From an uncultured Prevotellaceae bacterium (lineage in GTDB: Bacteria; Bacteroidota; Bacteroidia; Bacteroidales; Bacteroidaceae), in the NCBI GenBank assembly GCA_946415365.1, contig CAMKSE010000007.1:13566-77565 (forward strand): a stretch of DNA of 64,000 nt. The letters run 5' to 3'. The notes under the pieces are model-generated. The model saw only the letters and a program-made list of their open reading frames with translations, searched no databases and was not told the origin of the DNA. Positions 13,047 through 62,481 of this stretch are shown here, piece by piece (position 1 is the stretch's first letter; each line of letters begins with the position of its first letter). Made by a program: the position numbers and the translations under genes.

Positions 13047-14321
13047 TTATTTCTTAATAAACTCAACGCGGCGGTTCTTGGCGCGGCCGGCTTCGGTGGA
13101 GTTGTCGGCGACGGGTTCGTGGGAACCCTTACCGACGGGACGGAGGTTGAAGGGATCGCAGCCGAGGCCTTCGAGAGCCTTGACGACGGCCTCAGCACGC
13201 TGCTGAGAGAGCGGGTCGTTGATGGCGTCGGAGCCCTGGTTGTCGGTATGTCCCTGCACCTCGAAGCGTGCACCGGGGTTCTTCTTCATATAGTCAGCAA
13301 CCTTCTGGATCTCGGCCATCGACTCAGGCTTCAGCGTTGCCTTGCCTGTCTCGAAGAGGATGTTGTTAGTCACGAACTTACCCGTCTCGGCAATGGCTTT
13401 CTCAATGGCGGTCATCGACTGTTCATTGCGGTCGTAGAGTGCTACCCCACCCTTCGCCAAGCGGATATTGGTGATGTAATCCACATGATCTTCCCAGAAT
13501 TCTGTTTCGACAGAGAACCAGTCCATAGCCGTGGCATTGGGGATATTGATGATGCGCTTGCCGTTGACATAAACCTTCAAGGCACGCTTGTTGAACGACA
13601 GGGCGAAGTGGTTCCAGTCGTTCAGTTCCATGATGTCCTCCAAAGACGCGTTTCCATGGACATTATCATCACTATTCGGCCTTTGGATGGACCAGGTCAT
13701 TCTGTCCTGACTGAACCAAATGGTACTATTATGACGGTCGTTCTCAGAATTCAGATACAGATTGTAGGCCGTGTTGGTGTCTTCCTTGCCTGTGGCGAAG
13801 AAATCGAACTCCAAGGTATAGAACTCGGGCAAGTACTTCTTGTTACCGTCCTTAATGAGCGGCATGATTTCCGTATTAGAGCCATGCTCAAACTTGATAG
13901 CCATCTTGCCGTTCATCCTGGCAACCTCGGCATTATTCTCGATGAGATCCCACTTCGACGGGAACTCACCCAACTGCTCACCCTGAAGGTTATCCTCGAA
14001 GATGACGACAGTACCGGGAACGAAGTCGCTCTTCACTTCCTCGCCCTGGGCAGTCTTCTTCTTGGCAGCGGGAACCTCCTCCTGCTCTCCTATTTCCTCA
14101 TCTTCGTAGTCGGCATCGTTGCTCTTACTCTTTTTCGTGCCGTTGATGGCATCGTCTATGGCGTCGTCGGTCTCGCGAGTAACCTTATTAGTAACTTTAT
14201 TGGACACTGCATTCTCGGCTGCATTGACAGCTCGGTCCTTCAGACGCTTGAGGAAACCCTGAGCATCGGCCGTGACAGCGAAAGCTACTGCCATCAGCAA
14301 CATTAAAACGATTCTCTTCAT
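13047..14321 (-). CDS. OmpA-family protein (N-terminal lectin/LamG-like region plus C-terminal OmpA peptidoglycan-binding domain)
   Basis: ORF 13047..14363. Start MKRIVLMLLMAVAFAVTADA is a signal peptide. C-terminus carries HTDNQGS...NRRVEF. Confidence 0.85.
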   Translation of the reverse strand: MKRIVLMLLMAVAFAVTADAQGFLKRLKDRAVNAAENAVSNKVTNKVTRETDDAIDDAINGTKKSKSNDADYEDEEIGEQEEVPAAKKKTAQGEEVKSDFVPGTVVIFEDNLQGEQLGEFPSKWDLIENNAEVARMNGKMAIKFEHGSNTEIMPLIKDGNKKYLPEFYTLEFDFFATGKEDTNTAYNLYLNSENDRHNSTIWFSQDRMTWSIQRPNSDDNVHGNASLEDIMELNDWNHFALSFNKRALKVYVNGKRIINIPNATAMDWFSVETEFWEDHVDYITNIRLAKGGVALYDRNEQSMTAIEKAIAETGKFVTNNILFETGKATLKPESMAEIQKVADYMKKNPGARFEVQGHTDNQGSDAINDPLSQQRAEAVVKALEGLGCDPFNLRPVGKGSHEPVADNSTEAGRAKNRRVEFIKK

Positions 14322-16080: not shown

Positions 16081-16149
16081 AATCGTTTAATTTTTGTTGC
16101 AAAGATATGTATTTTTCCCCAAATATTTGGATAATTTGAAGAAAAACTG

Positions 16150-16157
16150 TAAATTTG
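16150..16157 (+). promoter_or_regulatory. -7 box (taaatttg) ahead of the structured unit upstream of ribE
   Basis: taaatttgcag lies 13 nt before the 5' arm of the long-range helix. Confidence 0.4.
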
Positions 16158-16169
16158 CAGCGAAAATAT

Positions 16170-16359
16170 ACGGGTCGTGCCGCATAGATCGGGATACTCT
16201 ACAATAAAAAAATTCATTGGGACTGTTTCCCTTGCCAATGGCGGGCCACAGTTATCCTTCGGGAGAGCAGCAATGCCGGTGGATTACAACAGCAGGGAGC
16301 ACCCTTATCGTGTGAAACAGGAGTTTTCACCAAATCATCGGCACGTACCCGTTTTTTTT
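16170..16359 (+). ncRNA. Candidate structured RNA or leader (~190 nt) upstream of ribE; class unassigned
   Basis: The 5' arm acgggtcgtgccg (16170-16182) pairs with cggcacgtacccgt (16339-16352) and is followed by T8 (16352-16359). Internal hairpins are tcc-UUCG-gga (16255-16264) and gtgaaa/tttcac (16312-16330). Canonical FMN-riboswitch blocks were not recognisable by eye. Confidence 0.3.
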
Positions 16360-16360
16360 A

Positions 16361-16416
16361 GTTTATAGTTTACAGTTTATAGTTTATAGTTTATAGTTTA
16401 CAGTTTACAGTTTATA
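16361..16416 (+). repeat. (GTTTAYA)x8 perfect-register heptanucleotide tandem array
   Basis: gtttata gtttaca gtttata gtttata gtttata gtttaca gtttaca gtttata, followed by gaa-ATG of ribE. Confidence 0.97.
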
Positions 16417-16419
16417 GAA

Positions 16420-17019
16420 ATGTTTTCTGGAATCATTGAGGAATTTGCCACTGTTGTGGCTGTTAAAAAAGACCGTGAGAATATCGATTTTACGCTGAAG
16501 TGCTCTTTCACCAGTGAATTAAAAATTGACCAGAGCGTCGCCCACAACGGTGTATGCCTGACCGTAGTAGCCATTAACGGCGAGGAGTATGTGGTAACAG
16601 CCATGAAAGAGACTTTAGATCGCACAAACCTTGGACTACTGAAAGTTGGCGACAAGGTGAACGTAGAGCGCTCAATGCTCATGAATGGCCGTCTTGACGG
16701 TCACATTGTACAGGGTCATGTCGACGAAACCGCCACATGTATTGCGATGGAGGATGCCGACGGCAGCACATATTTCACCTTCGAGTATCCAGAGAACCGT
16801 GAGATGGCCAAGAAAGGCTACTTCACCGTCGACAAAGGTTCCGTCACCGTCAACGGTGTCTCGCTCACCGTCTGTAATCCCACCTCCAACACTTTTCAGG
16901 TGGCCATCATTCCCTATACGTTCGATCATACTAATTTCTGCGATATCCAAGTAGGGACAGTCGTTAACCTCGAGTTCGACATCCTTGGAAAATACATCGC
17001 ACGTCTACAACAACTATAA
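16420..17019 (+). CDS. ribE: Riboflavin synthase (alpha chain)
   Basis: MFSGIIEE... N-terminus, GVCLTV motif, duplicated lumazine-binding repeats. Confidence 0.93.
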   Translation: MFSGIIEEFATVVAVKKDRENIDFTLKCSFTSELKIDQSVAHNGVCLTVVAINGEEYVVTAMKETLDRTNLGLLKVGDKVNVERSMLMNGRLDGHIVQGHVDETATCIAMEDADGSTYFTFEYPENREMAKKGYFTVDKGSVTVNGVSLTVCNPTSNTFQVAIIPYTFDHTNFCDIQVGTVVNLEFDILGKYIARLQQL

Positions 17020-19091: not shown

Positions 19092-19092
19092 C

Positions 19093-19120
19093 TATAAACC
19101 AGAAACTATAAACTACAAAC
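19093..19120 (-). repeat. (GTTTNYR)x4 heptamer array of the GTTTAYA family forming the malQ-HAD junction
   Basis: Minus strand reads gtttgta gtttata gtttctg gtttata g-ATG. The malQ stop TAG spans units 1 and 2. Confidence 0.9.
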
Positions 19121-21731
19121 TCCTTTTGCTGCGCTGAATCATCGTGTGTACCTTATTATTATATTTATCGGCGGCGATAAGGTCTTCGATGGTGAGGTGC
19201 ATACGGTATCGCCAGCGGTTATAGGGGTCACTGGGCACATTAATACGCTCTTCTCGTGGATTCTTGCTTCGCAGTTCAGTGTCCATTGAAAGCCAGTCCT
19301 GCAAAGAGAGGACGCAGAGCATGGATGGACAGTAGAGATGGCGGGCTATGATCTCCTCTGCCATATGGGCAGGCAGTTGCTCTGGGGCTCGGCCCTGCTT
19401 CTGAAGCATTGTGACATAGTATCGCTGCGTGCGCTCTGGACTCTCACTCCACCAAAGACGCAATGGTGGCATATCATGGGTAGAGATGGTGGCTACACTG
19501 CGGTATGGGTTGCCCTCGAGGTGAGCAAATTCGTAGCTGCTGTGCTTGGGCATCGACTGAATTTCGAGCGACAGGATGCGCAACTGGTCAAGCACGGGTT
19601 GTACACAGTCAGGAAGCATACCGAGATCTTCGGCGCAACAAAGCATACGTGTATGTCCAAACACTTCAGCAAGCCTATGTAGGGCTGTGGCACCCCAAAA
19701 GAAGTTATGACGCTGATAATAATAGTTATTGTAGAGTCGCATAAAGGCATCTTTCTCATCATTAGTGAGGGCCTCGTAGACGGGTTCTTGGAAGACGCCT
19801 ATACGGGGATGGTACATCTCTGGCTGGCGCGGATCTTCGAGGAAGAGCACGTCGCTGACGAGACGGTACAGGCCGTCACGTATCCAGAGACTGTTCTCGT
19901 CTGTCCTGCCCTCAAAAGCATCGCGAACTTTGCATTGAGTGTCATATTCGGCTTTGAGATCATACAGACCGTAACTACGTGGGATGAGGAAATTCTCTCG
20001 CACATACTGCGCATGGAGTCCAAAAAGACGCTCTAGCACGCGATCATTAATAAACGGACGAGTGAAGAGATCTTTCCGGAAAGACAGACCGAAATATTCT
20101 ATCTCGGCCTGCGTCATAGGCAGTGAGGGTGAGAAATGGCCTAGGATTCCGAAGACAGCATCCTGTGGTATCTCCCAGATACGGAAGAAGCCCAATACGT
20201 GGTCAATGCGTATGGCATCAAAATATTGCTCCATCCAACGAAGGCGACGGTGGAACCAGTTGAATATGCCTGCACTCCAATTGTACGTAGGGAACCCCCA
20301 ATTCTGACCACTTTGGGAGAAGGCATCGGGAGGTGCTCCCGTGGAACAGTCGAGATGGAAAAGCTCAGGGTACATCGTGGTTTCCACACTGTTGCGATTG
20401 ACACCAATAGGCACATCGCCTTTCAGGACCACGCCATGCTCATGGGCATAGTCGGCGGCAGATTTCAACTGCAGATGCAGATGGTATTGAATCCAACACA
20501 CCAAATCACGCTGGGACTTGATGTAGCTGATGTAGGGTTCGAGCCAGTCACAATTATCATCAAACCACTGCTTGAACTCTTTTGAGTCAAGTGTCTGGCG
20601 CCCACGTTCTTCAAACACTTCATAAGCATATTCAAGTTTAACCCTTTGTACTGCCTCGTAGTCGGTATAACTCAAAGCATTGAGTTCTCTACGCCGCCTC
20701 AGAAAGGCAGTCATGCGTTTCTTATCGCGGAGAGGGCCAAGGGCATTAAGGTCGAGATACTGCGGATGGAGGGCGAACGCTGAGATAATGTTATATGGAT
20801 ATGAGTCACTCCAGGAGCCGTCAGTTGTGGTGTCGTTGACAGGCAGTATCTGTATGATCTTCATACCAGTAACCACTGCCCAGTCAACGAGCAGGCGCAA
20901 GTCACCGAAATCGCCTACTCCACAGGAATGACTACTGCGGAGAGAGAATACGGGTACAGAGACGCCAGCAGCTCGCCAAGTCTCCTCACGCACTCTCAGC
21001 AGCTCACCATACACCACCAAAACACTGCCGTCAGGTACTGACTGTTGGTCAGAGGGTAGCATACCCTCAGTAGTACGGTTGTCACCCTCTTCCCAAGCCA
21101 CGAGGGTATGCGTGGCATCATCGACAATGACATACTTGAACTCTATAGGAAGTGGTATGGCGTCAACATTCACCGAAAGCAACCACTCACACATACCCAA
21201 CTGTTCCATCTGCAGATAGCGGGCAGGATTCCAACTACCAAGTGCGGGATGTCCACCGAGAATAGCTACAGACTGTCTCTTTCGTAATTGAGGGGCAGAA
21301 ACGCGGAAGATAACAGTCTTGCGGTATAGCGGAATTCTCTGAATTGACAATTGATAATTGATAACAGACAATTGACAATTAATGCGATAAGCTCGTGTGT
21401 ACAAGTGATACTGCAGAGGGATATCTCGCCACTGATCGGGAAAGACGTAATTCTTTGTGGCGTCAAAGTAATAAGTGCGGGGCACCTCTGTCCACTCTCT
21501 GCGCGACTCCTTTCCTTCTGAGTCGGCCACATAATAATAATAGGTTATGGTAGTAACGGGGTGCTGGCGCGACTCTATAGCCGATGTCTCCAGTTCCCAA
21601 TGCCAACCGTCATCGGTGGTCATAGGCAGACGTCGCACTTTTTCCTTTCCATCGGAACTCTGATAAGTGACAGCCACATAGAGGTTCTCGCCCCATTGAG
21701 TTCCGTATTTTATGGTAAACTTAAGTTTCAT
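19113..21731 (-). CDS. malQ: 4-alpha-glucanotransferase (GH77 amylomaltase) with two N-terminal CBM20-like modules
   Basis: 872 aa. GH77 blocks (DHVLGFFR, WGFP..., CAEDLG) follow two starch-binding-like modules. Confidence 0.92.
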   Translation of the reverse strand: MKLKFTIKYGTQWGENLYVAVTYQSSDGKEKVRRLPMTTDDGWHWELETSAIESRQHPVTTITYYYYVADSEGKESRREWTEVPRTYYFDATKNYVFPDQWRDIPLQYHLYTRAYRINCQLSVINYQLSIQRIPLYRKTVIFRVSAPQLRKRQSVAILGGHPALGSWNPARYLQMEQLGMCEWLLSVNVDAIPLPIEFKYVIVDDATHTLVAWEEGDNRTTEGMLPSDQQSVPDGSVLVVYGELLRVREETWRAAGVSVPVFSLRSSHSCGVGDFGDLRLLVDWAVVTGMKIIQILPVNDTTTDGSWSDSYPYNIISAFALHPQYLDLNALGPLRDKKRMTAFLRRRRELNALSYTDYEAVQRVKLEYAYEVFEERGRQTLDSKEFKQWFDDNCDWLEPYISYIKSQRDLVCWIQYHLHLQLKSAADYAHEHGVVLKGDVPIGVNRNSVETTMYPELFHLDCSTGAPPDAFSQSGQNWGFPTYNWSAGIFNWFHRRLRWMEQYFDAIRIDHVLGFFRIWEIPQDAVFGILGHFSPSLPMTQAEIEYFGLSFRKDLFTRPFINDRVLERLFGLHAQYVRENFLIPRSYGLYDLKAEYDTQCKVRDAFEGRTDENSLWIRDGLYRLVSDVLFLEDPRQPEMYHPRIGVFQEPVYEALTNDEKDAFMRLYNNYYYQRHNFFWGATALHRLAEVFGHTRMLCCAEDLGMLPDCVQPVLDQLRILSLEIQSMPKHSSYEFAHLEGNPYRSVATISTHDMPPLRLWWSESPERTQRYYVTMLQKQGRAPEQLPAHMAEEIIARHLYCPSMLCVLSLQDWLSMDTELRSKNPREERINVPSDPYNRWRYRMHLTIEDLIAADKYNNKVHTMIQRSKRSL
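21342..21383 (-). repeat. (AATTGAY-like)x6 heptamer array inside the malQ coding sequence
   Basis: Plus strand reads aattgac aattgat aattgat aacagac aattgac aattaat. On the minus strand it encodes INCQLSV-INYQLSI, beginning exactly at codon 117. Confidence 0.9.
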
Positions 21732-21748
21732 ATATCACGATTTTACTG

Positions 21749-21756
21749 CAAAGATA
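21749..21756 (-). promoter_or_regulatory. -7 box (tatctttg on minus strand) for malQ
   Basis: The complement of caaagata reads tatctttg, 18 nt upstream of the malQ ATG. Confidence 0.5.
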
Positions 21757-21762
21757 CAAAAT

Positions 21763-21797
21763 AATTGATAATTGGCAATTGATAATTGATAATTATT
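21763..21797 (+). repeat. (AATTGRY-like)x5 heptamer array in the malQ/mltG divergent promoter region
   Basis: aattgat aattggc aattgat aattgat aattatt. Confidence 0.9.
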
Positions 21798-21800
21798 TTG

Positions 21801-21808
21801 TAATTTTG
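21801..21808 (+). promoter_or_regulatory. -7 box (taattttg) for mltG
   Basis: Immediately follows the heptamer array and lies 25 nt before the ATG at 21833. Confidence 0.5.
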
Positions 21809-21832: not shown

Positions 21833-22858
21833 ATGAAAGCCTACAAGAAGAAGTTCTATATCATACCCATCGTGGTCTGCCTGCTCGCAATTGCAGCAGT
21901 GGTGGCTTATTATCTGACGGGCAGTTTTTCCCGTTCGGAACAACGTGAGTATGTGTATATCGACGACAATGACAACCTTGACTCTGTAACGGCAAAGTTG
22001 GCCCCGATAGCCAGTGAACAGGCCCTGCTGAGTTTCAAGATCATTTCACACCATACTGGGTACGACAAGAATATCAGAAGCGGACGGTATGTCATAGAAC
22101 CTGGTGAAGGCACCTTCAGTGTGCTACGCAAGCTGAAGAACGGTCATCAGGAGCCTCTGAGGCTGACCATTCCTGAGAGTCGTACTACAGACCGTCTGGC
22201 GGGTGCTATCGGCAGGAAACTGATGATGGACAGTCTGTCGCTTTCAATACTTCTCAAAGATTCTGCATTCTGTGCCGCACAAGGTTTCGACACGACCACG
22301 ATAGTCTCAATGTTTGTGCCCAACACCTACGAAGTGTATTGGAACACATCGATAGAGAATCTCATGAGCCGAATGAAGAAGGAACACGACAAGTTCTGGA
22401 ACGAAAGCCGCATGGCGAAGGCCAATGCTTTGGGACTAAGTCCAGAGGAAGTGTGCACGCTTGCCAGCATTATCGATGAAGAGACATCGAATAATGCTGA
22501 GAAACCTATGATAGCACGTATGTACTTGAACCGTCTGGCAAAGGGCATGCCTCTGCAGGCAGACCCAACGGTAAAGTTTGCCTTGAAGGACTTCGCCCTG
22601 AAGCGTATCTATCACAATATGCTGAACACCGACAGCCCGTATAACACATACCGCTATGCAGGTCTGCCCCCTGGACCAATTAAGGTAGCATCGGTGGCTG
22701 GTGTCGAGGCCGTATTGAATCCTGCAAGCCACTCATATCTCTATATGTGTGCTAAGGAGGATTTCTCGGGCACCCACAATTTTGCCGCCACTTATCAAGA
22801 GCACCTTAAGAACGCATCAAAGTATTCGAAGGCCCTCAATGAGCGAGGCATCAAATAA
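21833..22858 (+). CDS. mltG: Endolytic murein transglycosylase MltG (YceG-like)
   Basis: N-terminal TM helix, YceG domain blocks (ASIIDEET, LQADPTV, NTYRYAGLPPGPI). Confidence 0.92.
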   Translation: MKAYKKKFYIIPIVVCLLAIAAVVAYYLTGSFSRSEQREYVYIDDNDNLDSVTAKLAPIASEQALLSFKIISHHTGYDKNIRSGRYVIEPGEGTFSVLRKLKNGHQEPLRLTIPESRTTDRLAGAIGRKLMMDSLSLSILLKDSAFCAAQGFDTTTIVSMFVPNTYEVYWNTSIENLMSRMKKEHDKFWNESRMAKANALGLSPEEVCTLASIIDEETSNNAEKPMIARMYLNRLAKGMPLQADPTVKFALKDFALKRIYHNMLNTDSPYNTYRYAGLPPGPIKVASVAGVEAVLNPASHSYLYMCAKEDFSGTHNFAATYQEHLKNASKYSKALNERGIK

Positions 22859-22865
22859 GTTGCCG

Positions 22866-22909
22866 GTTTACAGTATACGGTTTACAATTTGGATTTATTA
22901 TAGTTTATA
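22866..22909 (+). repeat. Degenerate GTTTAYA-family relic upstream of glnS
   Basis: gtttaca gtatacg gtttaca ... gtttata g ata-ATG. Two exact ggtttaca copies lie 14 nt apart, plus an out-of-register gtttatag next to the start codon. Confidence 0.6.
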
Positions 22910-31650: not shown

Positions 31651-33141
31651 TTACAAATTCTTCTTCAAAGTCTCCTTCCACTGGGCGTATGCAGCTGCAT
31701 AGGCAGCACGGTCAGCCTCCTTGGGTTCTATCACCTGCAGCTTGTCAAGCGTTGCGAAGGCCTCGTCGGCATTGGCATAGATACCAGCTCCGATACCAGC
31801 ACCCTTAGCAGCACCTACAGAACCGTCGGTGTCGTAAAGCTCTATGGTAGCACCGCTCACACCAGCCAAAGTGTCGCGGAACAATGGACTCAAGAACATA
31901 TTGGCTTTACCTGCATGAATCTTCTTAATGTCCATGCCCATCTGCTGCATGATTTCCATGCCATAGCAGAACGAGAAGACGATACCTTCCTGTGCTGCAC
32001 GCACCAGATGAGCCTTGTTGTGCTTGTTGAAATTCAGACCGTTGATCGAACAGCCAATCTCTTTATTCTCCAAAACACGTTCAGCTCCATTTCCAAACGG
32101 GATGACAGTCACACCTTCACTGCCGATGGGTACTGTAGCAGCCAGGTCATTCATTTCTGCATATCCAATCTCTGGAGTGATATTACGATGCGTCCATGCA
32201 TTCAGGATACCAGTACCGTTGATGCAGAGCAGCACACCCAAACGCGTCTGGTCTGCACTATGGTTCACATGGGCAAACGTATTCACACGGCTTTGCTTGT
32301 CGTAGTTAACATCGCCAAGCACACCGTAGACGACACCAGAAGTACCTGCAGTAGCAGCTATCTCACCGGGATTCAACACATTGAGTGACAGGGCGTTATT
32401 AGGCTGGTCACCACCGCGATAGGTGATTGGAGTCCCGGCTTTTAATCCCATCTCCTCAGCAGCCTCAGCACTGACCACACTCTGCTCTGCAAATGTCGGC
32501 ACGATGTCAGCAATCAGAGAAGCGTCGAAGCCGTAATACGACATCAGGAAGTCAGCCACCTGATTGTTCTTGAAATCCCAGAACATACCCTCGCTCAAGC
32601 CGCTCACAGTAGTATTGGCCACACCAGAGAGTCGCATAGCGATATAGTCACCAGGCAACATGATCTTATAAATCTGGCTGTAGAGCTCCGGCTCATTCTC
32701 TTTCACCCATGCCAGTTTTGCGGCTGTGAAATTACCCGGAGAGTTCAGCAGATGGCTCAGGCACTGCTCAGCTCCCAAGTCCTTGAAAGCTTTCTCACCA
32801 TAAGGAACAGCACGAGAGTCACACCAGATAATCGACGGACGCAGAGCCTTCAGATCCTTATCGACACACACCAGACCATGCATCTGATACGAGATACCGA
32901 TAGCTTTAATCTCCTCTGCTGTCGCCCCGGAGTCGGCCATGATTTTCTTTAAGCTCAACTTCGCATTATTCCACCACATCTGTGGATCCTGTTCTGCCCA
33001 ACCAGCCTTCACAGCCATAATCGGTGCCTCCTTCTCAGGGAAGAATGCAGAGGCCACACACTTGCCATTATCGGCGTTCACAAGAGATGCCTTCACTGAT
33101 GAGCTACCGACATCAAAACCTAAAAGATATCTGTTTGCCAT
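31651..33141 (-). CDS. xylB: Xylulokinase (FGGY family)
   Basis: ORF 31651..33183. Start MANRYLLGFDVGSSSVKA. FGGY N- and C-terminal domains. Confidence 0.9.
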   Translation of the reverse strand: MANRYLLGFDVGSSSVKASLVNADNGKCVASAFFPEKEAPIMAVKAGWAEQDPQMWWNNAKLSLKKIMADSGATAEEIKAIGISYQMHGLVCVDKDLKALRPSIIWCDSRAVPYGEKAFKDLGAEQCLSHLLNSPGNFTAAKLAWVKENEPELYSQIYKIMLPGDYIAMRLSGVANTTVSGLSEGMFWDFKNNQVADFLMSYYGFDASLIADIVPTFAEQSVVSAEAAEEMGLKAGTPITYRGGDQPNNALSLNVLNPGEIAATAGTSGVVYGVLGDVNYDKQSRVNTFAHVNHSADQTRLGVLLCINGTGILNAWTHRNITPEIGYAEMNDLAATVPIGSEGVTVIPFGNGAERVLENKEIGCSINGLNFNKHNKAHLVRAAQEGIVFSFCYGMEIMQQMGMDIKKIHAGKANMFLSPLFRDTLAGVSGATIELYDTDGSVGAAKGAGIGAGIYANADEAFATLDKLQVIEPKEADRAAYAAAYAQWKETLKKNL

Positions 33142-33272
33142 AAAATGAATAATTATTTTATTTAAAATACGCTTTTGATGCAAATTTCCCCATTTTTTTT
33201 TATTTAAACAATTTTTTTTCGAAAAAAAGCATTTTTTTTACCATATTTTGTGTTCAATTAAAATATTTTGTT

Positions 33273-33280
33273 TACCTTTG
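33273..33280 (+). promoter_or_regulatory. -7 box (tacctttg) ahead of the receiver gene and glycan module A
   Basis: tttacctttgcac lies 42 nt upstream of the ATG at 33322. Confidence 0.45.
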
Positions 33281-33321
33281 CACGATAGAATCACATTATT
33301 ACGTAATAAAGCCATTCATAT

Positions 33322-33687
33322 ATGAAGAAAAAAATACTAATACTTGACGACAAAGAGACCATCGCTAAGGTGCTCTCCATCTATCTGATGAGCGACTATG
33401 ATGTGCAGTGGCTCCCGGATGGACTGCAGGGAGTGAAATGGCTCCAGGCAGGAAACACACCCGATCTTATCATCTCTGATATTCGTATGCCCGGCATGCG
33501 TGGTGACGATTTCTTGGAGTGGATCAAGCAAAACGAATTGTTTAAGCACATTCCCGTCATCATGTTGTCCAGTGAAGACTCCACCAGTGAGCGTATTCGC
33601 TTGTTGGAAATAGGTGCAGAGGACTATATTGTCAAGCCGTTCAACCCAATGGAGTTGAAAATCAGGGTTAAGAAGATTATACCATAA
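33322..33687 (+). CDS. Stand-alone response-regulator receiver (CheY-like) protein
   Basis: LILDD, phospho-acceptor context LIISDIRMPGM, MLSS and VKPF are all canonical REC positions. There is no output domain. Confidence 0.9.
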   Translation: MKKKILILDDKETIAKVLSIYLMSDYDVQWLPDGLQGVKWLQAGNTPDLIISDIRMPGMRGDDFLEWIKQNELFKHIPVIMLSSEDSTSERIRLLEIGAEDYIVKPFNPMELKIRVKKIIP

Positions 33688-33722
33688 TATATATAAGTAC
33701 ATATACATATTTTATTTTATAG

Positions 33723-34940
33723 ATGATAGGTATAGTTTATCTTGGTAGCAATCCAGAAACCCAGGAACGTCTGAAATACATTCCCGGAAGGTTGGTTCAG
33801 TTTACGACCAACTACAAGGATGCCGCCTCTGCCTGTGCCCCACATGTCCGTAATGAGCATGTCATCATGTTCTACGAGCAGACGGTTCAGGCAGAAGATA
33901 TCACGGCTATCACCTACATCAAAAAGAAGTGTAAGAATGTCTACATCATCCTGCTCACCAACCAGTTGACCTTGGATGACAGGAAGATGTACCAAAAGTG
34001 TGGCATCAACGACACGATTGACGCTAAGTCTTCTATCACTGAGATGAACAAGAAGATTCAGTTTATCTCTGACCGTGAGATGATGCTGTTCGACGATGCT
34101 CCCTCTAAGCACCGTATATTGCGTTTCAAGATTCCCCTTTGGAAACGTTTATTCGACATTTTCTTCTCGCTTTTGGCAATTATCATTCTTTCACCCGTCT
34201 TTATCATCACAGCTATTGCCATTCGTCTGGAGAGTAAAGGGCCTGTTATCTTTAAGTCCAAGCGTGTCGGTACCAACTACACCGTTTTCAACTTCCTGAA
34301 GTTCCGTTCCATGTATGCAGATGCAGAGCAACGCTTGAAGGAAGTGGCAAAGGAAGCTGGTAATCAGTATGCGGAGAAAGACCAACCTGAGGAAGGCAAG
34401 GACAATCAGAGTGTTATCACAGCTCCACTTGGCGATGAGGCAGAAATGCTGATGATGGATATGGGTATGGAATCCGCCATGATGATCAGCGACGATGAGG
34501 TGATGCTTGTCGGCGATGATTTTGTGGTGGCCGAATCCGACTTCAATAGGGAGAAGGAAGAGGAGAACAATAATGCCTTCGTCAAGATTGAGAACGACCC
34601 GCGTGTAACTAAAGTGGGTAAGTTTATACGTAAATACAGCATTGATGAGTTACCACAACTCTTCAACATATTAAGAGGCGACATGTCCATTGTTGGCAAT
34701 CGCCCGTTGCCTCTCTATGAGGCCGAGAAACTCACCATAGACTCTAGCATCGACCGCTTCATGGCTCCAGCCGGACTTACTGGCCTTTGGCAGGTAGAGG
34801 AGCGAGGTAAAGGAGGCCTGATGTCAGCAGAGGAGCGAAAGCAACTCGACATCACCTATGGACAGACCTACTGCTTCACACTAGATATGAAGATCATATT
34901 CCGTACCCTCACGGCATTCGTCCAAAAAGAAAACGTATAA
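33723..34940 (+). CDS. Phosphoglycosyl transferase (bacterial sugar transferase family) with N-terminal pseudo-receiver domain
   Basis: The C-terminal block NDPRVTKVGKFIRKYSIDELPQLFNILRGDMSIVGNRP is typical of PF02397. One TM helix (LFDIFFSLLAIIILSPVFIITAIAI). The N-terminal ~120 aa show a beta-alpha pattern like REC but lack the acidic pocket. Confidence 0.88.
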   Translation: MIGIVYLGSNPETQERLKYIPGRLVQFTTNYKDAASACAPHVRNEHVIMFYEQTVQAEDITAITYIKKKCKNVYIILLTNQLTLDDRKMYQKCGINDTIDAKSSITEMNKKIQFISDREMMLFDDAPSKHRILRFKIPLWKRLFDIFFSLLAIIILSPVFIITAIAIRLESKGPVIFKSKRVGTNYTVFNFLKFRSMYADAEQRLKEVAKEAGNQYAEKDQPEEGKDNQSVITAPLGDEAEMLMMDMGMESAMMISDDEVMLVGDDFVVAESDFNREKEEENNNAFVKIENDPRVTKVGKFIRKYSIDELPQLFNILRGDMSIVGNRPLPLYEAEKLTIDSSIDRFMAPAGLTGLWQVEERGKGGLMSAEERKQLDITYGQTYCFTLDMKIIFRTLTAFVQKENV

Positions 34941-39659: not shown

Positions 39660-39661
39660 TA

Positions 39662-39697
39662 TATTGAAGATTGGTTATTGAAGATTGAATATTGCGG
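39662..39697 (+). repeat. 2.5 copies of a 14-mer (equivalent to five ATTGNNN heptamers) filling the Wzy-GT2 junction
   Basis: tattgaagattggt tattgaagattgaa tattgcgg. Contains the only in-frame start candidate (TTG at 39685) of the GT2 gene. Confidence 0.9.
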
Positions 39698-40638
39698 TTT
39701 CTATTGTCACCATCAATTACAATGGACTGGAAGACACCTGTGCATTGATTGAGTCCATCCCCTTCAATGAAAACATGGAGGTGATTGTAGTTGATAATGC
39801 CTCAAATAATCACGAAGCAGAAACCATTGCACAGCGATATCCACGAGTCAATGTCATTAAAAGCGATAAAAATCTAGGTTTTGCAGGAGGTAATAACTTA
39901 GGAATTCAAGCAGCTCAAGGCAAATATCTGTTCTTGATCAACAATGATACAATTTTTAAGGATTTCAATGTTCGAGCTCTTATTGAAAGAATGGAATCAT
40001 CTCAAAAAATAGGCATCGCTTGTCCTAAGATACGTTTTGCCTGGGGAACGAATCCAATTCAATTCGCAGGCTATACATCTCTTTCAATAATTACTGTCCG
40101 CAATCAGGCCATTGGCTTCAATGCAGAAGATCATGGACAATACGACACTGCCCACCCTACGCCATACGCTCATGGCGCAGCCATGCTGATTCGTCATGAC
40201 GCCATCAACAAGGTGGGACTTATGCCAGAATGTTATTTCCTGTATTATGAAGAACTGGATTGGTCTATGATATTCACTCGAGCTGGCTATCAGATATGGT
40301 ATGAACCTAAATGCACAATCTACCACAAAGAAAGTCAAGCAACAGGTCAGAACAGCCCTTTACGCACCTATTATATCACACGCAACAGGTTTCTATTAGT
40401 CAAGCGAAATCCGAAGGAATTCATCCAGCCACTTGCTTACTTGTATCTCTTCTGCATTGTTGTCTTACGCGACATATTGAAGTATATATTCTCTTTTCGA
40501 TTTGATCTCTTGAAAGCTACACTTCGTGCTCTAAAAGATTTCATTCTATACGCTCAGTCTAATGCCGCTTGCACGCGCTCGGCTCTGCCGCTTATTCGAG
40601 CATCAGCGAGTCTTAAGAACGTGAAGCAAAAACTGTAA
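39685..40638 (+). CDS. Glycosyltransferase family 2
   Basis: VSIVTINYNG...VVDNASNN...NLGFAGGNN...INNDT motifs. TTG start: an in-frame TGA at 39679-39681 excludes any upstream ATG. Confidence 0.82.
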   Translation: MNIAVSIVTINYNGLEDTCALIESIPFNENMEVIVVDNASNNHEAETIAQRYPRVNVIKSDKNLGFAGGNNLGIQAAQGKYLFLINNDTIFKDFNVRALIERMESSQKIGIACPKIRFAWGTNPIQFAGYTSLSIITVRNQAIGFNAEDHGQYDTAHPTPYAHGAAMLIRHDAINKVGLMPECYFLYYEELDWSMIFTRAGYQIWYEPKCTIYHKESQATGQNSPLRTYYITRNRFLLVKRNPKEFIQPLAYLYLFCIVVLRDILKYIFSFRFDLLKATLRALKDFILYAQSNAACTRSALPLIRASASLKNVKQKL

Positions 40639-40660
40639 ACTGTAAACCGTAAACTGTAAA
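40633..40660 (+). repeat. (CYGTAAA)x4 array, reverse complement of the GTTTAYA family, at the GT2-synthase junction
   Basis: ctgtaaa ctgtaaa ccgtaaa ctgtaaa cgaaataatt-ATG. The upstream stop TAA (40636-40638) lies in unit 1. Confidence 0.9.
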
Positions 40661-40670
40661 CGAAATAATT

Positions 40671-62403: not shown

Positions 62404-62481
62404 TGCCTTAAGGCACACTATGGCGTGCCTTAAGGCGCATCATTGCGTGCCTTAAGGCAAATGGCCATTTGCCTTAAGGCA
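62404..62481. repeat. Four GCCTTAAGGC palindromes at exact 22-bp spacing
   Basis: Cores at 62405-62414, 62427-62436, 62449-62458 and 62471-62480. Copies 3 and 4 form a 32-bp perfect palindrome (gccttaaggcaaatgg|ccatttgccttaaggc). Confidence 0.97.

Follow-up and report, generated by a model that had tools for sequence, protein, structure and literature searches.

The 64,000-nt stretch of contig CAMKSE010000007.1 from an uncultured Prevotellaceae bacterium (positions 13,566 to 77,565; hereafter the window) carries a solitary array of eight GTTTAYA heptamers (16361-16416, + strand) between a 6S RNA gene and the riboflavin synthase gene ribE. The array is probably, albeit with considerable reservations, a slippage-driven heptanucleotide microsatellite, i.e. 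a long simple sequence repeat (LSSR) built from units of 7 nt, that is tolerated as an unstructured A/U-rich spacer of variable length. Following the proposal of Mrazek et al. 2007, as summarized in later papers (PMC4679880, PMC4692102), units would be gained and lost by replication slippage favouring 7-nt units. Over longer divergence, mutated units spread through the array, and the junction keeps its period of 7 while the sequence of the unit drifts; selection would only filter for arrays that can be tolerated. Initiation in Bacteroidota, which proceeds without Shine-Dalgarno pairing, would need an open A/U-rich leader; a solitary direct-repeat array would be harmless at such a junction because it does not pair with itself and leaves the leader A/U-rich and open. 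The array would lie in the transcribed spacer between the 6S terminator and the start of ribE, which would be read through from the 6S promoter, and its only likely effect would be to put distance between the stable 6S closing stem and the region in which translation of ribE begins.

The eight units are arranged head-to-tail in perfect register. Only the trinucleotide GAA separates them from the start codon of ribE (ATG at 16420), which sits 3 nt past the array. Units 1, 3, 4, 5 and 8 read GTTTATA and units 2, 6 and 7 read GTTTACA. Variation is thus confined to unit position 6, and each of the seven overlapping double units fits GTTTAYAGTTTAYA without a mismatch, in agreement with the initial annotation, which had described eight in-register heptamers differing only at this position in front of ribE. 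The period-7 self-match of the array is 0.92, with no other period exceeding 0.38. Tandem Repeats Finder (TRF) reported 9.0 copies with a score of 98, making it the top tandem repeat of the window, in which all arrays with more than four copies have a period of 7. The double unit GTTTAYAGTTTAYA was found 11 times in the window when up to one mismatch was allowed, compared with 0.07 matches expected from dinucleotide shuffles, and none of 100 shuffles reached 11, which bears out the earlier claim that arrays of this family are non-random. In sum, the ribE array shows the features by which heptanucleotide LSSRs are recognized: 7-nt units placed head-to-tail, a length and frequency beyond what composition predicts, and copy numbers that differ by whole units between related strains.

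The T-run ahead of the array, previously noted as a U-tract, is indeed present and was refined as the 3' end of a 6S RNA gene (16173-16354, + strand). This gene was detected with cmscan as a match to the Rfam family Bacteroidales-1 (RF01693; 98.6 bits, above the gathering score of 60; E = 5.2e-15) that covers model positions 1-179 of 179. Bacteroidales-1 RNA has been identified as the Bacteroides 6S RNA, and Segatella copri expresses it (bioRxiv 10.1101/2024.04.05.588293). In the predicted fold, a tract of eight T residues (16352-16359, + strand) follows the closing stem and forms a terminator-like 3' end. The product of ribE (16420-17019, + strand) is a riboflavin synthase of 199 aa with two lumazine-binding domains (Pfam PF00677, E = 5e-46), whose closest named homologue is found in Prevotella sp. 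(91% identity) and whose N-terminus, MFSGIIEE, is common to 80 orthologues. There is no FMN riboswitch upstream of ribE, the 6S RNA being the sole Rfam match in the window.

Promoters were sought with the Bacteroidota -7 box TAnnTTTG (TANNTTTG) and not with a sigma-70 scanner, as Bacteroidota promoters differ. Boxes were found, as expected, ahead of the epimerase gene, the 6S gene and the genes for GH77 (4-alpha-glucanotransferase) and YceG. The box of the 6S gene, TAAATTTG (16150-16157, + strand), is the last one on this strand ahead of ribE, since the region from 16158 to the ribE ATG at 16420, including the array itself, contains none. Three further GTTTAYA arrays in the window, described below, lie in spacers that likewise carry no -7 box, so that all four appear to be intra-operonic. 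Given that ribE has no -7 box of its own and that the 14-17 nt spacers of relatives leave no room for a promoter, the gene is most likely expressed by read-through from the 6S promoter.

The number of units differs between strains, a polymorphism that had been proposed as a check and was readily seen at the orthologous ribE junction. The window carries the allele with eight units, five contigs (L001-L004 and L123) carry five units and a further one (L203) carries nine. The five-unit contigs encode a RibE protein identical to that of the window, and RibE of L203 is 98% identical. Across 8.6 kb aligned between the window and L123 (96.96% identity), 21 of the 22 gapped bases fall into the ribE array, where they form an indel of exactly 21 nt, the only sizeable one in this region. 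Eight contigs that share one RibE sequence (P0008) have arrays of another unit family, in which no fewer than four unit counts were seen. Assembly errors are an unlikely source of these differences, because the arrays are shorter than a read and the five-unit allele was assembled independently several times. Units have been gained and lost between close strains, and the combination of unit-step alleles with homogeneity within the array points to slippage as the cause. The alleles with five, eight and nine units are probably near-neutral, as the modelled accessibility of the start region (see below) is flat up to eight units. Exact-protein look-ups with GT2 (39775-40635) and YceG (21833-22855) returned no sister-strain match for the junctions next to these two genes.

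Variable unit numbers are also what a contingency (phase-variation) locus would display, in which slipped-strand changes switch or grade downstream expression as adaptive bet-hedging. Besides the alleles of five, eight and nine units seen among assemblies of near-identical strains and the differing counts in contigs with identical RibE, this reading can draw on two arrays of the window (39661-39694 and 40630-40661) that sit in a polysaccharide cluster (Wzy, GT2) and on a precedent in a 5' untranslated region, the AGAT repeats of Moraxella uspA2, which tune expression according to the summary in PMC4679880. It is nevertheless very unlikely to apply here. The arrays lie outside reading frames and not between -33 and -7 boxes, so that changes in unit number cannot switch a gene off; the downstream genes have housekeeping functions (ribE, a HAD phosphatase, glutaminyl-tRNA synthetase), with only the array at 40630 preceding a glycosyltransferase gene; the predicted accessibility is flat from three to eight units; and heptamer arrays occur at junctions, and in phyla, of all kinds. 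Contingency loci are located within open reading frames (ORFs) or between promoter elements and serve surface or host-interaction genes, neither of which holds for the ribE array. Of the slipped-strand contingency element that had been suggested earlier, the variation in unit number stands, but the adaptive switch is unsupported.

To follow the junction over larger distances, metagenome contigs were scanned for RibE, yielding 80 Prevotella loci with 82-100% RibE identity. The order 6S gene-ribE, with the 6S gene directly upstream, is kept in nearly all of them. Among the 66 6S-ribE spacers of at least 18 nt, period 7 was the best period with a self-match of at least 0.70 in 29 cases; other periods never reached this value. 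Spacers in relatives can be as short as 14 nt, and many lineages have 14-20 nt without an array. Where arrays are present, the unit depends on the lineage (GTTTAYA, AGTTAAG, AATTGAT/G, AGTGAAT, ATTAAAC, GGTTAAA, ACTTTGA, AGTTCAT, AAGTGAT or GGAGTAA), and most end with ARTT right before the ATG. Mixed arrays (L179, L180 and L183) contain intermediate units. When read in the register of the ATG, units can be arranged in a chain of single steps, GATAATT - GAGAATT - GAGAGTT - AAGAGTT/TAGAGTT - TATAGTT, the last being the unit of the window; non-repeat tails blur the strict in-register comparison, and only part of the units at this junction form one such chain. This pattern has the signature of a long-lived array whose unit drifts by concerted evolution. 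RibE homologues of 205-290 aa were considered as possible cases of N-terminal extension by read-through of arrays; they proved to be internal duplications, insertions or ORFs extending across the 6S gene. Some arrays at this junction (L126, L143, L168 and L196) are interrupted by G+C-rich inserts of 30-100 nt, some of them hairpin-like, which may be small mobile or REP-like elements.

The turnover of units bears directly on the possibility, also raised in the initial annotation, of a sequence-specific DNA or RNA binding array for a protein or small RNA that recognizes GTTTAYA and co-evolves with the unit of the lineage. The occurrence of one unit family at four junctions of the window would fit such an array, as would the enrichment of GTTTAYA-like arrays in the neighbourhood of others (50/143 compared with 4/44 in unselected loci, p = 6e-4, among the matches listed; see below) and the situation in Cand. 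Maribeggiatoa, where TAACTGA forms 169 repeat sets and related heptamers are rarely repeated (PMC4679880). The probability of this reading is nonetheless very small: at least three unit families coexist in the 64-kb window and many per locus elsewhere, arrays occur in both orientations relative to transcription, the unit drifts by single bases at one and the same junction with intermediates tolerated within one array, and no candidate factor turned up. The earlier suggestion is consequently weakened by the turnover of units between lineages at one junction and by the several unit families per genome. Overall, no evidence of a dedicated switch or binding array was found.

The ribE array and start region are predicted to be unstructured, with a minimum free energy of -6.1 kcal/mol over 96 nt (z = +1.70 relative to shuffles) and a fully unpaired centroid. 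This property is shared with spacers that have no array: in 59 distinct orthologous spacers, the z-score was +0.38 for array spacers and +0.42 for non-array spacers (p = 0.78), both being slightly below their shuffles in structure, and the idea that array spacers at the ribE junction are less structured than non-array spacers was ruled out. The open A/U-rich spacer proposed in the initial annotation was upheld insofar as the leader is predicted to be unstructured, but it is no more open than non-array spacers. When the co-transcript of 6S and ribE was modelled, the probability that positions -20 to -1 are unpaired was 0.21 with no unit, 0.42-0.48 with two to eight units and 0.26 with twelve. 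Accessibility of the start region is thus predicted to rise up to two or three units and to remain flat from there to eight. The Segatella copri lineage has no ribosome-binding-site consensus (bioRxiv 10.1101/2024.04.05.588293).

These results can also be read in terms of a translation leader under selection, in which the array serves as an open A/U-rich standby or loading platform for S1 or for an OB-fold protein of the cold-shock type, each domain of which covers about 7 nt, sets (re)initiation of the downstream cistron without Shine-Dalgarno pairing and tunes the output through the number of units. Such a platform would be consistent with the low structure of the ribE leader relative to its own shuffles, the gain in modelled accessibility with the first two or three units, the position of the four window arrays 1-10 nt from starts at junctions without promoters, and the persistence of an array at the ribE junction at 82-100% RibE identity, mostly with ARTT before the ATG. 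Furthermore, start-proximal arrays favour the A-rich orientation (16 compared with 5, among the matches listed), and the same proposal, with S1, Csp and CsrA as candidates, was made for the TAACTGA repeats by MacGregor 2015 (PMC4679880). We regard it as rather unlikely, because non-array spacers are equally open and long, spacers of 14-20 nt without any array suffice in many lineages, and modelled accessibility does not improve from three to eight units. Moreover, the ribE array is U-rich, which is the minority orientation near starts among the matches listed, arrays are also found in convergent spacers, right after stop codons far from starts, in promoter regions and in ORFs, and paired arrays in relatives fold the leader into hairpins (-22 to -40 kcal/mol), contrary to what an open platform would require.

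The three other GTTTAYA arrays, which had been placed at 19093-19120, 22866-22909 and 40633-40660, are real and were delimited at 19092-19121, 22866-22909 and 40630-40661. The first (- strand; units GTTTGTA, GTTTATA, GTTTCTG and GTTTATA followed by G; TRF, period-7 self-match 0.78) fills the junction between the genes for GH77 and a HAD hydrolase; the TAG that ends the GH77 reading frame (19113-19115) falls within the array, and the HAD start codon follows 1 nt beyond the array end. The second (+ strand) is a degenerate member of the family in the YceG-to-GlnS spacer, with the GlnS ATG 4 nt after the array; its period-7 self-match of 0.62 was equalled by only 2 of 10,000 shuffles. The third (- strand; units GTTTACA/GTTTACG, AAACTGT x4.6; TRF and double-unit matches, self-match 0.92) is located between two glycosyltransferase genes and is inverted, so that the mRNA bears the A-rich complement AAACUGU; it overlaps the upstream stop codon (TAA) and the next ATG (40671) follows 10 nt downstream. 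Three of the four arrays are forward, and the gaps between array end and start codon, in the order of description, amount to 3, 1, 4 and 10 nt, which accords with the 0-10 nt stated before. The presence of the upstream stop codon inside two of the arrays and the placement of all four at cistron junctions without a -7 box of their own were confirmed as well. A sequence reading ttttatag-ATG ahead of the PGT gene, which had been thought to be related, was discarded as a family member: the segment in question (33708-33722, before the gene at 33723) consists of a period-5 TATTT run with a single partial unit. The four arrays fill spacers of 21-65 nt, and these very short spacers account for their closeness to start codons. 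Among mid-sized operon spacers of the window (15-120 nt), about one third carry heptamer arrays.

Whether closeness to start codons is a general rule, as had been put forward for checking, was assessed across genomes using crude ORF calls and loci from the matches listed, to which all figures in this paragraph refer. The genes flanking the arrays were arranged as ++ in 29 cases, as -- in 36, convergently in 15 and divergently in 12, mirroring all intergenic regions of the same loci. Only 5 of 41 forward arrays ended within 12 nt of a start (median distance 107 nt), compared with 16 of 48 arrays in the A-rich orientation, and arrays were also found inside ORFs, in both orientations and in convergent spacers (15/92). 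A bias towards start codons as a general rule was therefore not borne out. The 5' end of the G-strand lies close to a stop codon, at a median of 7.5 nt compared with 138 nt on the other side (p = 2e-6).

This polarity derives in part from an architecture of inverted pairs. Among the matches listed, 20 of 106 arrays (~19%) have at least two inverted TRTAAAC units within 220 nt on the 3' side, and 2 have them on the 5' side. Spacers of this type occur in Segatella copri, Prevotella and Lepagella (L012, L019, L062, L079, L109, L112, L055 and L013): an array of the GTTTAYA type comes directly after a stop codon, an inverted TRTAAAC array immediately precedes the following start codon, and a central segment lies between the two. 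The order of the arms is fixed, the U-rich one being 5' (20 versus 2). In S. copri, the central segment is a conserved module, CGGCTACGCCGTTTAGCAAG. Four such spacers from Segatella copri/Prevotella are predicted to fold at -22 to -40 kcal/mol (z = -3.2 to -7.3). A description of this polar form with its strong intercistronic hairpins was not found in the searchable literature.

By extension, the ribE array could represent one arm of an intercistronic hairpin element (GTTTAYA plus inverted TRTAAAC) acting in mRNA processing or stabilization in a REP-like manner, in termination or, through melting of the hairpin, in translational coupling. The 20 arrays with inverted units on the 3' side and the four strongly folding examples speak for the existence of such elements, and complementary sequence is present near the 6S gene: in the window, AAACTGTAAA (16144-16153) is complementary to the ribE array across the 6S gene, and in two relatives the 6S gene is flanked by full complementary arrays (L163, 3727-3756 and 3968-3999; L135, 3725-3758 and 3968-4000), so that several lineages have the 6S gene enclosed by inverted heptamer arrays. 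Still, for the ribE array this role is extremely unlikely. A search for local inverted partners at the four window arrays found none (0/4), the array and the start region are predicted to be unpaired, and the 10-nt match upstream overlaps the -7 box of the 6S gene, so that it is probably absent from the transcript that carries the array. A processing stalk, in which array sequences flanking the 6S RNA would pair with each other, was set aside on the same grounds, as the upstream match is probably not co-transcribed.

The distribution of the repeats was investigated by scanning one genome per species for exact (GTTTAYA)x3 stretches. At least 118 were found, compared with about 2 that we estimate for uniform composition; the 118 matches listed include 80 from Bacteroidota (58 of the Bacteroidales type) and 29 from other phyla. 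The array-bearing loci among the matches listed come from many phyla and total 834 kb; 143 of their 240 non-seed tandem repeats have period 7 and another 18 have period 14 or 21. Period 7 likewise dominates in Prevotella, where 550 kb of DNA contain 78 tandem repeats, 49 of them with this period. As in the window with its three or more families, several period-7 unit families coexist per locus in other genomes among the matches listed. GTTTAYA-like units make up 50 of the 143 other period-7 arrays (35%) near the listed GTTTAYA arrays (loci L005-L122) but 4 of 44 (9%) in unselected loci (L124-L202; p = 6e-4). This clustering of one family within loci may reflect an exchange of units from array to array, a mutational bias common to them or a factor acting in trans.

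Several of these results weigh against an origin of the ribE array by slippage and tolerance alone. Mutation by itself leaves unexplained why one unit family occupies four unrelated junctions (clustering p = 6e-4), nor does it account for the higher frequency of the A-rich orientation near starts (16/48 versus 5/41, among the matches listed) or for the strict polarity of the inverted pairs. An array has moreover been kept at the ribE junction across 82-100% RibE identity. Taken together, the clustering, the A-rich bias, the polarity of the pairs and the persistence of the array suggest some selection on arrays. Slippage also offers no explanation of its own for the preference for 7 nt, for which a polymerase footprint has been proposed as a possible cause.

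A bolder explanation would take up these points in a single scheme, namely a selected, genome-wide cis-code in which an OB-fold RNA-binding protein (S1- or Csp-like) would act in trans and recognize the preferred 7-nt unit of a lineage. Solitary arrays would be loading platforms with one protein domain per 7 nt. Inverted pairs would form hairpins, their U-rich arm located at the upstream stop codon and their A-rich arm at the downstream start codon, and would couple translation of neighbouring cistrons where Shine-Dalgarno pairing is absent. The strength would depend on the number of units. If true, it would account for the period of 7, the use of one family genome-wide, the polarity of the arms and the persistence at the ribE junction despite the turnover of units. 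We consider this scheme quite improbable and retain the tolerated microsatellite as the preferred explanation.

The window contains three additional heptamer arrays that were absent from the earlier list. An AATTGAC/T array (21342-21380, + strand; TRF) lies inside the GH77 ORF, which is on the - strand, and encodes an inter-domain linker (residues 118-130, NCQLSVINYQLSI); in GH77 orthologues, the linker at these residues is variable, being unrelated in sequence and equal in length. An array of the AATTGAT family (21761-21794, + strand; 4.9 copies, TRF) is located between the divergent -7 boxes of the GH77 and YceG promoters (21749-21756, - strand, and 21801-21808, + strand). It occupies the 44 nt between these boxes (21757-21800) and thus covers both -33 regions. 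The third array, of the ATTGAAG family (39661-39694, + strand; TRF), starts 1 nt past the stop codon of a Wzy-like gene and lies 80 nt ahead of the next start codon.

The GH77-to-HAD junction varies between lineages as well, with an overlapping stop/start (ATGA) in many of them and arrays of varied units in others, one of about 14 copies. Within GH77, the loop following the motif NWGFPTYxW carries in-frame insertions of about 7-25 residues in some lineages (L124, 6401-6487; L167, 4478-4507; L125). These insertions are built of G/A-rich heptamer arrays, together with their inverted complement in L124 and L167; GH77 of the window has no such insertion in that loop. Unrelated to the heptamers, a 22-nt tandem repeat, TGCCTTAAGGCACACCATGGCG, is present in 2.5 copies in an intergenic region (62404-62459; TRF score 84), and about 950 nt between convergent genes (32389-33336) contain no ATG-initiated ORF of at least 90 codons.

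Heptamer arrays are pervasive and hypervariable in Prevotella/Segatella, which are dominant bacteria of the gut and rumen, and hence matter for strain typing, assembly and the annotation of gene starts. The 6S-ribE junction in particular offers a natural series, in which the site and the period of 7 are kept while the sequence and number of units drift, so that the questions of why the unit measures 7 nt and whether the arrays are neutral or selected can be tested there.

In E. coli, 6S RNA is co-transcribed with a downstream ORF from the ssrS-ygfA locus. The arrangement described here is similar in that a 6S gene directly precedes a protein gene without its own promoter, the downstream gene in this case being ribE, the spacer a heptamer array and co-transcription an inference. 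Among known repeats, the closest counterparts are the TAACTGA direct repeats that MacGregor 2015 (PMC4679880) described in marine Beggiatoaceae, in some Cyanobacteria and in five Bacteroidetes. These mostly lie a few nt upstream of start codons. Like the arrays described here, they consist of tandem 7-nt intergenic units without a Shine-Dalgarno sequence, precede genes whose functions follow no pattern and include housekeeping ones, differ between strains by indels in steps of 7 nt, show occasional reverse and in-ORF copies, and are accompanied by other heptamers in the same Bacteroidetes spacers (PMC4679880). They differ in the unit, as the rotated complement of GTTTAYA, ACTGTAA, has only ACTG in common with ACTGATA; in the host, which here is a gut or rumen Prevotella; and in the presence of several drifting unit families per genome, as opposed to one dominant unit in Cand. 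Maribeggiatoa. Furthermore, forward GTTTAYA arrays are not start-proximal across genomes (5/41, among the matches listed), whereas the window arrays lie 1-10 nt from a start.

Heptanucleotides were reported as the most abundant class of long simple sequence repeats, located in intergenic regions, by Mrazek, Guo and Shah 2007, who, according to the accounts in PMC4679880 and PMC4692102, proposed polymerase slippage favouring 7 nt as the cause and found units that are not a multiple of three to be excluded from ORFs. The ribE array resembles these LSSRs, and the dominance of period 7 observed here agrees with that work as summarized. The summary in PMC4679880 names Burkholderia spp., Cyanobacteria, Actinobacteria and Xanthomonas as the ten genomes richest in repeats of 5-11 nt and mentions neither Prevotella nor a placement at cistron junctions; the searchable literature yielded no description of such heptamer arrays in Prevotella. 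Repeats with the (AGAT)n unit in uspA2 of Moraxella catarrhalis are likewise located between promoter and start codon and vary in number between strains, but, as summarized in PMC4679880, they have an experimentally determined effect on the expression of a surface virulence protein, whereas ribE is a housekeeping gene. The cyanobacterial STRR heptamers and the GGGAATC/GGGGAYT units of Xanthomonas and Nostoc (Rehm et al. 2015, PMC4692102) also form arrays that recur at equivalent intergenic sites of related strains, vary extensively in length and sequence and include some inverted pairs; their units are G-rich and capable of forming quadruplexes, whereas GTTTAYA is A/T-rich, with a single G and no G4 potential. 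The ribE array is thus ordinary in kind: no class of long simple repeats is more common in bacteria than the heptanucleotides, and start-proximal heptamers have been described before.

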